Below are positions 41,974 through 49,740 of a stretch of DNA of 64,000 nt, piece after piece; the stretch's first letter is position 1; every line of letters begins with the position of its first letter. Both the position numbers and the translations under genes were made by a program. The DNA is from Escherichia coli 042. GTDB lineage: Bacteria > Pseudomonadota > Gammaproteobacteria > Enterobacterales > Enterobacteriaceae. Under the pieces are notes generated by a model. It did no database searches. It was not told the DNA's origin and saw nothing but the letters and a program-made list of their open reading frames with translations. The stretch lies in the NCBI RefSeq assembly GCF_000027125.1, contig NC_017626.1; one strand, given 5' to 3'.

Positions 41974-42858
41974 ATGCCATTCAGCAATTCTTCCCTCTCC
42001 GCGCAAGTGAAATCATATCTGACGTTTCTTCCTGAAGAAATTCGCCAGAAAATCCTTGAACATCTCCACGGTGTTATTCATTACGAGCCCGTGATTGGCA
42101 TTATGGGTAAATCCGGCACCGGCAAAAGCAGTCTGTGTAATGCCATTTTTCAGTCCCGTATCTGCGCCACGCATCCCCTGAACGGCTGCACCCGCCAGGC
42201 TCATCGCCTCACCCTGCAGATTGGTGAACGCAGAATGACGCTGGTCGATCTGCCCGGCATTGGTGAGACACCGCAGCATGATCAGGAATACCGGGAGCTT
42301 TACCGTCAGTTACTGCCGGAACTGGATCTGATTATCTGGATCCTGCGGGCTGATGAACGTGCGTATGCTGCCGATATTGCCATGCATCAGTTTTTACTGA
42401 ATGAAGGTGCAGATCCCTCGCGTTTTCTGTTTGTTCTCAGCCATGCCGATCGCGTGTTTCCTGCTGAAGAATGGAATGCCACAGAAAAATGCCCATCCCG
42501 TCACCAGGAACTCTCACTGGCAACTGTTACAGCCTGGGTGGCAACCCTGTTCCCGTCATCATTTCCGGTACTCCCCGTTGCTGTGCCTGTCGGCTGGAAT
42601 CTTCCGGCGTTTGTGTCGCTGATGATCCACGCCCTGCCACCGCAGGCAACCAGTGCGGTTTATTCACATATCCGGGGGGAAAACCGCTCTGAACAGGCCC
42701 AGAAACACGCACAACAGACTTTTGGTGACGCCATCGGGAAAAGTTTTGACGACGCCGTTGCCCGGTTCACTTTTCCGGTCTGGATGTTACAGCTTCTGCG
42801 TAAAGCCCGGGACCGCATTATCCGCCTGCTGGAAACACTGTGGGATCGTCTGTTCTGA
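41974..42858 (+). CDS. YfjP/YkfA/YeeP-family GTPase (cryptic-prophage GTP-binding protein)
   Basis: 294-aa ORF with P-loop (GIMGKSGTGKSS) and G3-like (DLPGIGE) motifs. Confidence 0.75.
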   Translation: MPFSNSSLSAQVKSYLTFLPEEIRQKILEHLHGVIHYEPVIGIMGKSGTGKSSLCNAIFQSRICATHPLNGCTRQAHRLTLQIGERRMTLVDLPGIGETPQHDQEYRELYRQLLPELDLIIWILRADERAYAADIAMHQFLLNEGADPSRFLFVLSHADRVFPAEEWNATEKCPSRHQELSLATVTAWVATLFPSSFPVLPVAVPVGWNLPAFVSLMIHALPPQATSAVYSHIRGENRSEQAQKHAQQTFGDAIGKSFDDAVARFTFPVWMLQLLRKARDRIIRLLETLWDRLF

Positions 42859-43060
42859 CACACTCACGCCGACAGGATGTGTCGCTGGATTAACGAGTAT
42901 TCTTCTTTTTATGAAATCATCATTAAAAATCAGATAATTAAAGGAATATTTTTTCTGCTGCATTTTATTCCTGATTATTCAGATACGACACATCCTTTCA
43001 ACACCATGAGGCATAATAACATCATGAAATAAAAGATGTTTTCTTACGGAGTACACATCT

Positions 43061-43741
43061 ATGTCTGATGATCGTTCCCGGCATGATCGTCTGGCGGTTC
43101 GCTTATCACTCATTATCAGCCGACTGATGGCCGGAGAATCTCTGTCACTAAAGACACTGTCAGATGAATTTGGCGTTACAGAACGTACTTTACAGCGCGA
43201 TTTTCATCAGCGTCTGGTTCACCTGGATTTAGAGTACAGAAATGGCAGGTACAGCCTCAGACGACAGAGCAGCCCGTGTGCGATCCCTGAAATGCTTTCT
43301 TTTATACAGAATACCGGGATCGCACGGATACTTCCGCTCCGGAACGGACGACTGATAACCTTTCTTACCGACAACCAGGAGCCCTCTCCCTGCCTTATCT
43401 GGCTGCCGGCGCCGGATATCACTGCAACGTTCCCCGAGTGTTTCTCGCAACTCATCCTGGCAATAAGACAGTGTATCCACATCTCTCTGATGACTGAGCG
43501 ATGGTATCCGTCACTGGAGCCCTGCCGGCTCATTTATTACAGCGGTAGCTGGTATCTGATCGCGTTACAGAAGGGAAAACTGCAGGTCTTTCCTCTGGCA
43601 GATATCAAATCAGTCAGCCTGACATCAGAACGGTTTGAACGGAGAGGCCACATCCACAGTCTGGTCGCTGAAGAGCGTTTTATCTCCGCCCTGCCACATT
43701 TCTCTTTCATCCATAAACTTATCAACACCTTTAACCTGTGA
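43061..43741 (+). CDS. HTH transcriptional regulator, YfjR-like (DeoR-type HTH)
   Basis: 226-aa ORF with N-terminal HTH (LKTLSDEFGVTERTLQRDF). Confidence 0.5.
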   Translation: MSDDRSRHDRLAVRLSLIISRLMAGESLSLKTLSDEFGVTERTLQRDFHQRLVHLDLEYRNGRYSLRRQSSPCAIPEMLSFIQNTGIARILPLRNGRLITFLTDNQEPSPCLIWLPAPDITATFPECFSQLILAIRQCIHISLMTERWYPSLEPCRLIYYSGSWYLIALQKGKLQVFPLADIKSVSLTSERFERRGHIHSLVAEERFISALPHFSFIHKLINTFNL

Positions 43742-43888
43742 TCGCCGGCCTGCCAAAGCCGTCCCGACAGGTATGGAGACAATATGTTGAACAGAAAACT
43801 AAATATACGGCTACGTCATTCCCTGAACAGTCACTGCATACCTTCCATCATTATCAATAACACCGTACGTTCATTTCAGAGGTCAGTC

Positions 43889-44566
43889 ATGAATACCAGA
43901 GCTCTTTTTCCCCTGCTGTTCACTGTGGCATCATTCTCCGCCTCCGCCGGCAACTGGGCTGTCAAAAACGGCTGGTGTCAGACCATGACGGAAGATGGTC
44001 AGGCGCTGGTAATGCTGAAAAATGGCACGATTGGTATTACCGGCCTGATGCAGGGATGCCCGAATGGCGTACAGACGCTCCTGGGCAGCCGTATCAGTAT
44101 TAACGGTAACCTGATCCCCACATCACAAATGTGTAATCAGCAGACGGGATTCAGGGCTGTTGAGGTGGAAATCGGACAGGCGCCGGAAATGGTCAAAAAA
44201 GCCGTTCACTCCATAGCAGAGCGTGATGTGTCCGTTTTACAGGCATTTGGTGTACGAATGGAATTCACCCGCGGTGATATGCTGAAGGTCTGTCCGAAAT
44301 TTGTCACATCACTTGCCGGTTTTTCCCCGAAACAGACGACCACTATTAATAAAGACTCCGTCCTGCAGGCTGCCCGGCAGGCATACGCCCGGGAATATGA
44401 CGAGGAAACAACAGAAACCGCTGATTTTGGCTCTTACGAAGTAAAAGGCAATAAGGTTGAGTTTGAAGTATTCAATCCTGAAGACCGTGCGTACGACAAA
44501 GTGACCGTCACGGTTGGTGCTGACGGTAATGCCACCAGTGCCAGCGTTGAATTTATCGGAAAATAG
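43889..44566 (+). CDS. Secreted/periplasmic hypothetical protein (signal peptide)
   Basis: Likely start at internal ATG ([20 protein letters not shown]); the track ORF begins further upstream. Confidence 0.4.
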
Positions 44567-44571
44567 CCGGT

Positions 44572-44805
44572 ATGTCGGACTGTCACCCTGTTTTATTGCC
44601 CGAAGGCCCTTTCTCACGCAAACAGGCAATGGCTGCCACAACAGCTTACCGCAATGTGCTTATTGAAGATGACCATGGAACGCATTTCCTGCTGGTTATC
44701 CGCAATGCCGAAGGGCAGCTACGCTGGCGGTGCTGGAATTTTGAGTCTGACGCCGGAAAACAGCTAAATTCGTACCTCGCCAGTGAGGGAATTCTCAGGC
44801 AATAA
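44572..44805 (+). CDS. Small hypothetical protein
   Basis: 77-aa ORF 5 bp after the preceding gene; followed by a terminator. Confidence 0.3.
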
Positions 44806-44825
44806 ACGTCTTCATTTCATCCATC

Positions 44826-44862
44826 AGGCCGCGTCTTCTCCGGGAGACGCGGCCTTTTCGTT
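44826..44862 (+). terminator. Rho-independent terminator
   Basis: GC-rich hairpin ggccgcgtct / agacgcggcc followed by ttttcgttt. Confidence 0.5.
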
Positions 44863-48431: not shown

Positions 48432-48442
48432 CCAGGAACAAC

Positions 48443-48640
48443 ATGAAATCATTAACCACGGAAACCGCACTGGATATTCTGATTGCGTGGCTACAGGACA
48501 ATATCGACTGCGAATCGGGAATTATCTTTGACAACGATGAGGATAGAACGGATTCGGCAGCACTGTTGCCCTGTATCGAACAGGCCAGAGAGGATGTCCG
48601 TACCCTGCGTCAGCTGCAGTTTCTGCAACAGAACCGGTGA
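48443..48640 (+). CDS. Small hypothetical protein
   Basis: Start adjusted to ATG at 48443 (MKSLTTETALD) with upstream aggaa RBS; 65 aa. Confidence 0.35.
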   Translation: MKSLTTETALDILIAWLQDNIDCESGIIFDNDEDRTDSAALLPCIEQAREDVRTLRQLQFLQQNR

Positions 48641-48724
48641 GTCTTACTCACCAGACTTCATTCCACTGACGCCAGCCTGAATACGGCTGGCGTTTTCGTT
48701 TATCTGCAAAAAGGAATATCGATT

Positions 48725-49567
48725 ATGTCTGAAATCACAGCCTCTCGTCCGGAAGTGGTCAACGGGCATACGGACGTTATCTGCTCAACCAGTATCCGCC
48801 ACATTCTGGCTGTACGAAAGAGTACATTGCTGCAAATCGACACACTTATCCGACAACTGGCTGAAATATCAGCAATAACAGAAAGTATTAGAGGTAAAAC
48901 GGCTCTGGACTGGGCCATGAAACAGGATTTTCGCTGCGGTTGCTGGCTGATGGAGAAACCGGAAACCGCAATGAAAGCCATCACACGCAATCTTGATCGC
49001 GAACTCTGGCGTGATCTGATGCAACGTTCCGGGATGCTGAGTCTGATGGATGCGCAGACCCGGGACACATGGTACAGGTCACTGGAATATGATAATTTTC
49101 CGGAAATCAGCGAAGCGAACATTCTGAGCACATTTGAACAACTGCACCAGAACAAAGATGAAGTGTTTGAACGGGGAGTGATCAACGTCTTCAAAGGGCT
49201 GAGCTGGGATTACAAAACCAACTCACCCTGTAAATTTGGCAGTAAAATTATCGTCAACAACCTGGTGAGGTGGGACCGGTGGGGGTTTCATCTTATCACC
49301 GGGCAACAGACTGACCGACTCGTCGACCTGGAAAGAATGCTACATCTGTTCAGCGGCAAACCGATCCCCGACAACCGGGAAAACATCACTATTCGTCTGG
49401 ATGGTCACATCCAGTCCGTTCAGGGTAAAGAGCGCTATGAAGACGAGATGTTCATCATTAAATACTTTAAGAAGGGATCTGCACACATCACTTTCAAAAG
49501 GCTGGAACTGATTGACAGAATTAACGATATAATAGCCAGGTACTTTCCTTCTGTGCTCTCAGCCTGA
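48725..49567 (+). CDS. Hypothetical protein (last gene before the tRNA-Phe remnant)
   Basis: 280-aa ORF; no family recognised by eye. Confidence 0.45.
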   Translation: MSEITASRPEVVNGHTDVICSTSIRHILAVRKSTLLQIDTLIRQLAEISAITESIRGKTALDWAMKQDFRCGCWLMEKPETAMKAITRNLDRELWRDLMQRSGMLSLMDAQTRDTWYRSLEYDNFPEISEANILSTFEQLHQNKDEVFERGVINVFKGLSWDYKTNSPCKFGSKIIVNNLVRWDRWGFHLITGQQTDRLVDLERMLHLFSGKPIPDNRENITIRLDGHIQSVQGKERYEDEMFIIKYFKKGSAHITFKRLELIDRINDIIARYFPSVLSA

Positions 49568-49676
49568 TCCCGAGTGTGATTCCCTTTCGATATCAAAAGG
49601 GACTGCGGGTATAATTGAGGGTACATTTTTAATCAAACCAAACAAATTGCATTAATATCAATATGATAAAAGAAAT

Positions 49677-49699
49677 TTTCGATTCCGAGTCCGGCACCA
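49677..49699 (+). repeat. Partial tRNA-Phe 3' end (attachment-site remnant marking an island boundary)
   Basis: ttcgattccgagtccgg-cacca matches the T-arm/acceptor 3' end of E. coli tRNA-Phe with one G missing; no upstream tRNA body is present. Confidence 0.6.
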
Positions 49700-49712
49700 C
49701 TAATTCTTAAGA

Positions 49713-49740
49713 ACCCGCCCACAAGGCGGGTTTTTGCTTT
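49713..49740 (+). terminator. Rho-independent terminator next to the tRNA-Phe remnant
   Basis: acccgcc / ggcgggt hairpin followed by ttttgctttt. Confidence 0.5.

Follow-up and report, generated by a model that had tools for sequence, protein, structure and literature searches.

The 64,000-nucleotide window analysed here comes from Escherichia coli 042 (contig NC_017626.1), and the feature under study is a short tRNA-like stretch that lies in it between a block of cryptic-prophage-type genes and a capsule locus. Thirteen open reading frames (ORFs), all on the same strand and without internal stops, fill positions 41974-49567; they are followed by a 22-base copy of the 3' end of the phenylalanine tRNA gene pheV with a terminator-like hairpin, and then by the left flank of the group 2 capsule (kps) locus (Table 1). 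We identify the 22-base stretch, with a probability of about 0.93, as the right-hand attachment scar (attR) of the pheV-associated island GI-pheV, situated upstream of kps.

The window contains a single copy of the 22-mer TTCGATTCCGAGTCCGGCACCA (49678-49699, + strand), in the context ...aagaaattTTCGATTCCGAGTCCGGCACCActaattcttaagaacccgcccacaaggcgggtttttgcttttggatct... The pheV gene of K-12 ends in ...GGTTCGATTCCGAGTCCGGGCACCA, followed by ctaattcttaagaacccgcccacaaggcgggtttttgcttttggatctgacaat, and in alignment the 22-mer corresponds to the final 23 nt of the gene less one G of a GGG run. Twenty-two of the 23 bases match and the single-G deletion is the only difference, with 17 bp of perfect identity on its left and CACCA alone on its right. 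Because the scar differs by a deletion, the exact pheV 23-mer has no ungapped match in the window at up to three mismatches; at the same threshold neither the 23-mer nor the 22-mer finds a further att copy in the window, and ARAGORN predicts no intact tRNA there. The next 48 bases (49700-49747) are all identical to the K-12 sequence after pheV and include a predicted hairpin with a GC-rich, 12-pair stem (49708-49736) and a T-run after it, recognised by a terminator scan and folding at -19.5 kcal/mol (z = -4.1 against shuffles); this GC-rich hairpin with its U-tract has the form of an intrinsic (Rho-independent) terminator. The stretch combines two elements of an attR, a near-identical tRNA 3' repeat and, on its right, the sequence that natively follows the tRNA gene. 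The tRNA-Phe 3' remnant and terminator that the first-pass annotation had placed at 49677-49740 are both borne out, and its coordinates are good to within one base; only the start is one base early, since t49677 mismatches the tRNA.

The closest complete genome is that of E. coli H3 (NZ_CP028732.1), which is 99.9% collinear with window positions 1-49747, the homology ending exactly at 49747. The alignment falls into two blocks (1-32483 at 99.89% and 32475-49747 at 99.99%), and the sole interruption is an insertion sequence (IS), IS1414, present in H3 at window positions 32475-32483 and absent from the window; the blocks overlap by 9 bp at this point, which is consistent with a target-site duplication of IS1414. 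An intact pheV lies in H3 at 4014053-4014128, 4.8 kb to the left of the equivalent of window base 1, with yqgA on one side and, 197 bp downstream on the other, a gene for a full-length P4-type integrase of 421 aa (domains Arm-DNA-bind_3, Phage_int_M and Phage_integrase). At this left end, attL, the tRNA is intact and the island's own hairpin and T-run, ACGGACCTCCACGGAGGTCCGTTTTT, follow directly after CCA; at the right end of the H3 island the remnant is followed directly by yghD, without kps. The island measures about 55.8 kb in H3, or about 54.5 kb without IS1414, and by this comparison the window very probably represents the last ~50 kb of a GI-pheV of ~54.5 kb. The intact tRNA-Phe gene sharing this 3' end, which was expected from the start, is therefore found beside a tyrosine integrase in a 99.9% collinear relative; the window itself opens about 4.8 kb into the island, which leaves the left end of the source genome out of view.

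Among complete genomes, four occupancy states are seen at this locus. It is empty in K-12, where pheV, its terminator and yghD are contiguous, with neither island nor kps. Only the island is present in H3, which has pheV, the island, the remnant, the terminator and yghD in that order. Only kps is present in 209 complete genomes (e.g. ST2747), in which yqgA, an intact pheV, the terminator, a fragment of an IS110-family element and kpsF form one contiguous match. Both are present in the window, in NCTC9022 and in strain 144, in the order island, remnant, terminator, IS110 fragment and kps. The flanks of the island are thus joined in K-12 and in the 209 genomes, and from the four states it follows that the island is exactly the interval between the two repeats. 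By sequence comparison, the island and kps are separate acquisitions.

The same scar is known from other strains. Nhu et al. 2024 (PLoS Genet, PMC11537424) catalogued GI-pheV, and their Table 1 gives 'TTCGATTCCGAGTCCGG-CACCA' as the attR ('23-bp imperfect') of APEC O1, S88, ED1a, H10407, 536, 55989, 042 and others; the string is identical to that of the window, the missing G included. Their islands also share with ours a P4-type integrase beside pheV (as in H3), a modular build in which IS elements separate the modules, the 'yee module' that they describe, related to CP4-44 and distal in position, and an end before kps. Our finding is a correct re-identification of a published feature, and the scar is real but ordinary. 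Through it, the island of this strain can be assigned to the published group of islands that have a 23-bp imperfect attR, and its right boundary is fixed at 49699, with native flank up to 49747 and kps as a separate neighbour rather than island cargo. This helps to predict which genes would be moved or lost together, namely the defence systems, the microcin genes and the toxin-antitoxin pair, and not the capsule; beyond correct annotation it is of little import.

P4-type integrases recombine an attP that carries a tRNA 3' end with the chromosomal gene, such that attL regains a whole tRNA gene and attR keeps a partial duplicate; satellite phage P4 integrates into a tRNA 3' end in this way. Here, a P4-type tyrosine integrase would have recombined a circular element bearing a copy of the tRNA 3' end into the chromosomal pheV, so that the left end (attL, outside the window) has the intact gene and the right end a 22/23-nt duplicate, before the original pheV terminator and flank. 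The sequence relationships are observed directly, and the recombination itself we infer by analogy with P4. The likeness to P4 extends to an integrase with an N-terminal arm-binding domain (as in the H3 island), to a target at the tRNA 3' end, with the gene made whole at attL and part of it repeated at attR, and to repeats that flank the core; unlike P4, the island has no P4 replication or capsid-size genes that we could see, and its target is a tRNA-Phe.

The flanking repeats have the pattern GGGYAY. Two of them lie 12 bp apart in the right arm (49607-49612 and 49619-49624), where the 15-mer GGGTATAATTGWGGG (49607-49621) occurs once in the window; the same 15-mer occurs once in the 49-kb left-end locus of H3, 127 nt downstream of pheV and 57 bp upstream of int, and the left-arm repeats, again 12 bp apart, are found there about 127-170 nt after pheV (19256-19299 of that locus). 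The reconstructed attP of 329 bp contains six copies of GGGYAY against 0.47 expected, and none of 20,000 shuffles reaches six, a statistic that is optimistic because the pattern was chosen post hoc, after seeing the data. The hexamers overlap TATAAT-like elements, that of the left arm 57 bp upstream of int. Since the integrase has an arm-binding domain, the repeats are candidates for arm-type sites, and they may act as integrase arm sites, as the int promoter, or as both. The P' copy of the 15-mer is conserved in NCTC9022, and no copy was found in the 351 bp of K-12 pheU flank examined. On the other side of the core, the displaced pheV terminator stands between the 13 distal island genes and kpsF, which share one strand. 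With about 55 kb now separating it from its gene, this terminator may block read-through from the 13-gene island operon into kpsF and capsule region 1. That the repeats are functional arm sites of the pheV-island integrase, that the island is still regulated and excisable despite the attR defect, and that the terminator insulates kps is a combined proposal that we hold only tentatively and consider rather unlikely, and whose interest would be modest even if it proved correct. The candidate sites offer a small lead on how stable pheV islands are.

Two other accounts of the 22-mer concern its origin and its position in the locus. It might be a chance match, or be derived from pheU or from another tRNA gene, and in K-12 pheU and pheV do have the same 76-nt gene sequence, so the 22-mer alone does not separate them. 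The 22-mer is, however, found in none of 100 dinucleotide-preserving shuffles, and it continues into the 48 bp of flank identity, which leads us to reject chance. The K-12 pheU flank differs completely from that of pheV and is unlike the window flank at 49700-49747; the flank is of the pheV type, and the integration site is therefore pheV. The neighbours yqgA and yghD also belong to pheV. We accordingly reject a pheU origin and give this whole account next to no credence; the alignment to pheV or pheU that the first-pass annotation had suggested as a check comes out in favour of pheV, with 22 of 23 bases and a pheV-specific flank. The remnant might instead mark an att site inside a larger, composite pheV island to which kps also belongs; such an island would have formed by tandem accretion and have its true end beyond kps. 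Older descriptions reportedly counted the capsule locus as part of pathogenicity island V of strain 536; kps is itself accessory, between pheV and yghD, and an IS remnant marks its flank. Against this, kps sits on an intact pheV terminator in the 209 island-free genomes and the H3 island lacks kps, and the left junction of kps (49747/49748) is 48 bp downstream of the tRNA copy, not inside the tRNA. The window holds no second repeat copy. In strain 144, a comparison of the K-12 pheV 3' end and its flank with a 41-kb locus, which extends through kps as far as the gsp genes, gives a single match; kps is thus not followed by another att copy there. The published islands, too, are drawn to end at this attR, before kps (Nhu et al., PMC11537424). 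We consider a composite island very improbable, and inclusion of kps in the island is rejected on the four occupancy states and the single match in strain 144. The boundary that had been proposed between the toxin-antitoxin block and kpsF is thus upheld, although three further genes lie between the CbtA pair and the remnant.

Some observations weigh against reading the 22-mer as the end of an integrated island, or at least of a mobile one. The attR is imperfect, with one G missing, and its present competence for excision is doubtful; the window contains neither an intact tRNA nor an integrase, the left end being read from H3; and the 15-mer of the P arm is not conserved in NCTC9022, where it has three mismatches, both GGGTAY half-sites being kept at the same positions with a different spacer. 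With the 15-mer drifted and the half-sites in place, the arm-site idea rests on the post hoc pattern. The one-base deletion would reduce or abolish excision; Nhu et al. (PMC11537424) note that one mismatched base in repeats of this kind can make deletion rarer by orders of magnitude. The deletion may thus have made attR non-functional, leaving a fixed island whose remaining sources of change are recombination within it, IS activity and homologous exchange of the flanks. We put the chances of this at about even. The same deleted attR is found on islands as different as those of strain 144 (with Ag43) and NCTC9022 (with fec, hly, cnf1 and sfa), and in many pathotypes of the published table (PMC11537424). 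Because these islands carry quite different cargo, the comparison points to an old junction that was inherited while the island was remodelled from within, as expected of a dead scar that recurs on islands whose cargo and integrase alleles differ widely; the drift of the P-arm 15-mer in NCTC9022 agrees with this. On the other hand, identity is still perfect over the 17 bp left of the deletion, H3 has a full-length integrase, the window retains an intact AlpA-like gene, and the base could have been missing from attP at the outset rather than lost by later decay. The AlpA-like gene encodes a helix-turn-helix (HTH) protein of 78 aa (29706-29942, - strand; Pfam Phage_AlpA, 2e-10) and is a possible excision helper or regulatory factor of the island. 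A loss of mobility is a refinement of the attR reading and does not contradict it.

Coordinates and supporting matches of the features between the first gene of the distal module and kpsF are collected in Table 1.

Table 1. Features at the right end of the GI-pheV island and the start of the kps locus (window coordinates; percentages are amino acid identities unless stated otherwise).
Feature	Position	Strand	Basis
YfjP/YeeP-like GTPase, first module gene	41974..42858	+	Pfam MMR_HSR1 E=4.6e-15; 36% to K-12 YfjP; 'YfjP family GTPase' in H3
HTH + WYL regulator (YfjR-like)	43061..43741	+	Pfam HTH_11, WYL; PADLOC WYL E=2.4e-18 on N-terminal part; 43% to K-12 YfjR
225-aa hypothetical protein	43889..44566	+	Intact ORF; hypothetical in H3 and NCTC9022
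DUF905 protein	44572..44805	+	Pfam E=9.4e-27
DUF932 protein (YfjQ-like)	44895..45713	+	Pfam E=2.1e-50; 74% to K-12 YfjQ
Antirestriction protein (LfgA/YfjX-like)	45804..46289	+	Pfam Antirestrict E=2.4e-37; 75% to CP4-57 protein
RadC-like JAB protein (YeeS-like)	46305..46781	+	Pfam RadC E=1.5e-44; NCBIfam RadC; 99% to K-12 YeeS
DUF987 protein (YeeT)	46844..47065	+	Pfam E=1.9e-39; 100% to K-12 YeeT
CbeA (YeeU) type IV antitoxin	47145..47522	+	Pfam CbeA_antitoxin E=1.6e-54; 94% to K-12 CbeA
CbtA (YeeV) type IV toxin	47569..47946	+	Pfam CbtA_toxin E=1.2e-61; 85% to K-12 CbtA
DUF5983 protein (YeeW-like)	47943..48431	+	Pfam DUF5983_N, DUF5983; 67% to K-12 YeeW over 60 aa
65-aa ORF, DUF957 by NCBI annotation in H3, NCTC9022 and strain 144	48443..48640	+	
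DUF4942 protein, last island gene	48725..49567	+	Pfam E=1.3e-65
Island-side arm of attR (P arm), two GGGYAY repeats	49568..49677	+	No differences from H3 and strain 144
attR core, 22-bp copy of pheV 3' end	49678..49699	+	Alignment; same string as published GI-pheV attR
Native pheV downstream flank (B' side), terminator hairpin 49708-49736 + T-run	49700..49747	+	48/48 identity to K-12
Unassigned 144 bp, start of kps left flank	49748..49891	.	K-12/H3 homology ends at 49747/49748
IS110-family transposase 3' remnant	49892..50131 (about)	+	C-terminal ~73 codons + ~20 bp past stop
kpsF, first gene of kps region 1, outside island	50855..51874	+	Pfam SIS + CBS; KpsF/GutQ in homologues, annotated start ~50891

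The final 7.6 kb of the island is a conserved 'yee' module of the type found in the K-12 cryptic prophages CP4-44 and CP4-57. Pfam matches above the gathering score were obtained for 10 of the 13 predicted proteins (MMR_HSR1, DUF905, DUF932, Antirestriction, RadC-JAB, DUF987, CbeA, CbtA, DUF5983 and DUF4942); the regulator matches WYL above that score and HTH_11 just below it, and neither the 225-aa ORF nor the 65-aa 'DUF957' ORF has a Pfam match. NCBIfam names only the GTPase (weakly) and RadC in this module, and Pfam was used for the rest. GTPase, regulator, DUF932, antirestriction, RadC, DUF987, antitoxin and toxin genes follow one another on the same strand, which is the order of the CP4-like module. 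Every family that the first-pass annotation had named was recovered by Pfam, in the order given; its list of the distal block omitted five genes (those for the 225-aa ORF, DUF905, DUF5983, DUF957 and DUF4942). The genes for CbeA and CbtA are adjacent, both intact and free of internal stops, as predicted for a type IV toxin-antitoxin pair. Blocks of this type are multi-copy: a 10-kb query matches 5383 of 5426 complete E. coli genomes, with a median of three places per genome.

The predicted proteins were compared with the CP4-44 and CP4-57 proteins and loci of K-12 by tblastn. The same gene families occur in the same order in CP4-44 (yeeP to yeeW) and CP4-57 (yfjP to ypjF), and the CP4-57/CP4-44-like label given at first pass is apt. 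The RadC, DUF987, CbeA and CbtA proteins (YeeS, YeeT, YeeU and YeeV) are 85-100% identical to those of CP4-44 and 62-78% identical to those of CP4-57, and the GTPase, regulator, DUF932 and antirestriction proteins are 36-75% identical to YfjP, YfjR, YfjQ and LfgA of CP4-57. The toxin-antitoxin pair of CP4-57 ends about 190 bp before psaA, the ssrA remnant, which is likewise a remnant of the target RNA gene; the site is ssrA in CP4-57 and pheV in the window island, and for CP4-44 the target is not annotated in the K-12 stretch examined. Compared with these prophages, the window module lacks flu and yeeR, its GTPase is only 32-36% identical, and its DUF5983, DUF957 and DUF4942 genes are intact, whereas in K-12 they are truncated or absent. 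A 407-aa ORF (40650-41873, - strand), divergent from the GTPase gene, is kept beside the module in H3 and NCTC9022; neither Pfam nor PADLOC assigns it to a family.

To the right of the pheV flank, the unassigned sequence at 49748-49891 is conserved with the kps left flank of other genomes, and the same junction joins the intact pheV to kps in the 209 island-free genomes. The IS110 remnant that follows matches by tblastn, at 72.6% over 73 aa, residues 250-322 of a full-length, 321-aa IS110-family transposase; its DNA is 85% identical over 207 bp to a full-length homologue and ends about 20 bp past the stop codon. The translation of 49883-50080 matches IS110-family transposases in 1384 plasmid hits at 72-74% identity, the Pfam Transposase_20 match is weak (E=0.088), and homologues at this place are annotated by NCBI as 'incomplete'. 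Only a remnant is present, and not a complete IS110-family element with both ends and a full transposase comprising N-terminal DEDD and C-terminal Transposase_20 domains. An IS110 fragment just beyond the scar had been noted previously and is real, although it starts about 145 bp past the end of the pheV flank and not directly at it. It had also been taken as a sign of further rearrangement, which the comparison does not support: the junction region is present in 1481 genomes, which makes the remnant a long-established part of the kps left flank rather than the product of a recent rearrangement in this strain. A translation 95% identical to the remnant was found on a 29-kb plasmid of Klebsiella oxytoca (NZ_LR890315.1, 16714-16908), with no annotation beneath it, which hints that kps-flank sequence occurs outside E. 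coli chromosomes.

The capsule locus has the usual group 2 arrangement at pheV-yghD, with kpsFEDUCS immediately to the right of the pheV terminator (kpsEDUCS assigned by homologous annotation), the conserved IS110 remnant upstream of kpsF and, in strain 144, yghD beyond kps. In strain 144 kps extends up to yghD, and the ~100 bp that separate the pheV terminator from yghD in K-12 and H3 are missing; because this stretch is absent from the kps-positive strain, the comparison suggests that kps replaced it and was not simply inserted. Region 2 (58959-63917, - strand) differs from the usual kps locus in its rarity, matching 13 of 5426 complete E. coli genomes, three of them at 99% or more. It encodes a 530-aa WcbI + hexapeptide acyltransferase-like protein, together with a 1045-aa protein in which no Pfam domain was found.

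In the pheU region of K-12 (4362200-4362900), the sequence downstream of the gene, including a hairpin, is almost identical to the island side after pheV at attL in H3 (19130-19215 of the left-end locus) and NCTC9022. Because of this match, K-12 pheU seems to carry a left-end remnant of a related island, beside the yjdQ pseudogene.

The cargo of the window island includes the Shango genes SngABC, an IbrAB-like pair, gene fragments of a type VI secretion system, a NERD/UvrD helicase and a microcin H47 cluster. Window positions 1-25000 are matched at 80% coverage or more in only four of 5426 complete genomes, and none of the 5426 combines this island with this kps region. The window thus differs from the published GI-pheV in its combination of cargo and in the pairing with a rare kps region 2, a difference of cargo and not of kind. 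The Shango anti-phage system consists of three genes at 11-5835 on the + strand (PADLOC: SngA 8.6e-100, SngB 3.8e-186, SngC 1.2e-277), which the NCBI annotation describes as a TerB-N protein, an ATPase and a DEAD/DEAH helicase. A 595-aa protein annotated as a '3'-5' exonuclease' (11782-13569, - strand) matches the candidate defence model C3a187 of PADLOC (NERD + UvrD helicase; 4.5e-140). The word 'microcin' is absent from the main text of PMC11537424; in the window, a cluster of the microcin H47/colicin V family occupies approximately 18000-27000 (H3 4036931-4046732) and comprises mchB, mchI, mchF, an HlyD-family gene, mchS3 and acyltransferase-like genes.

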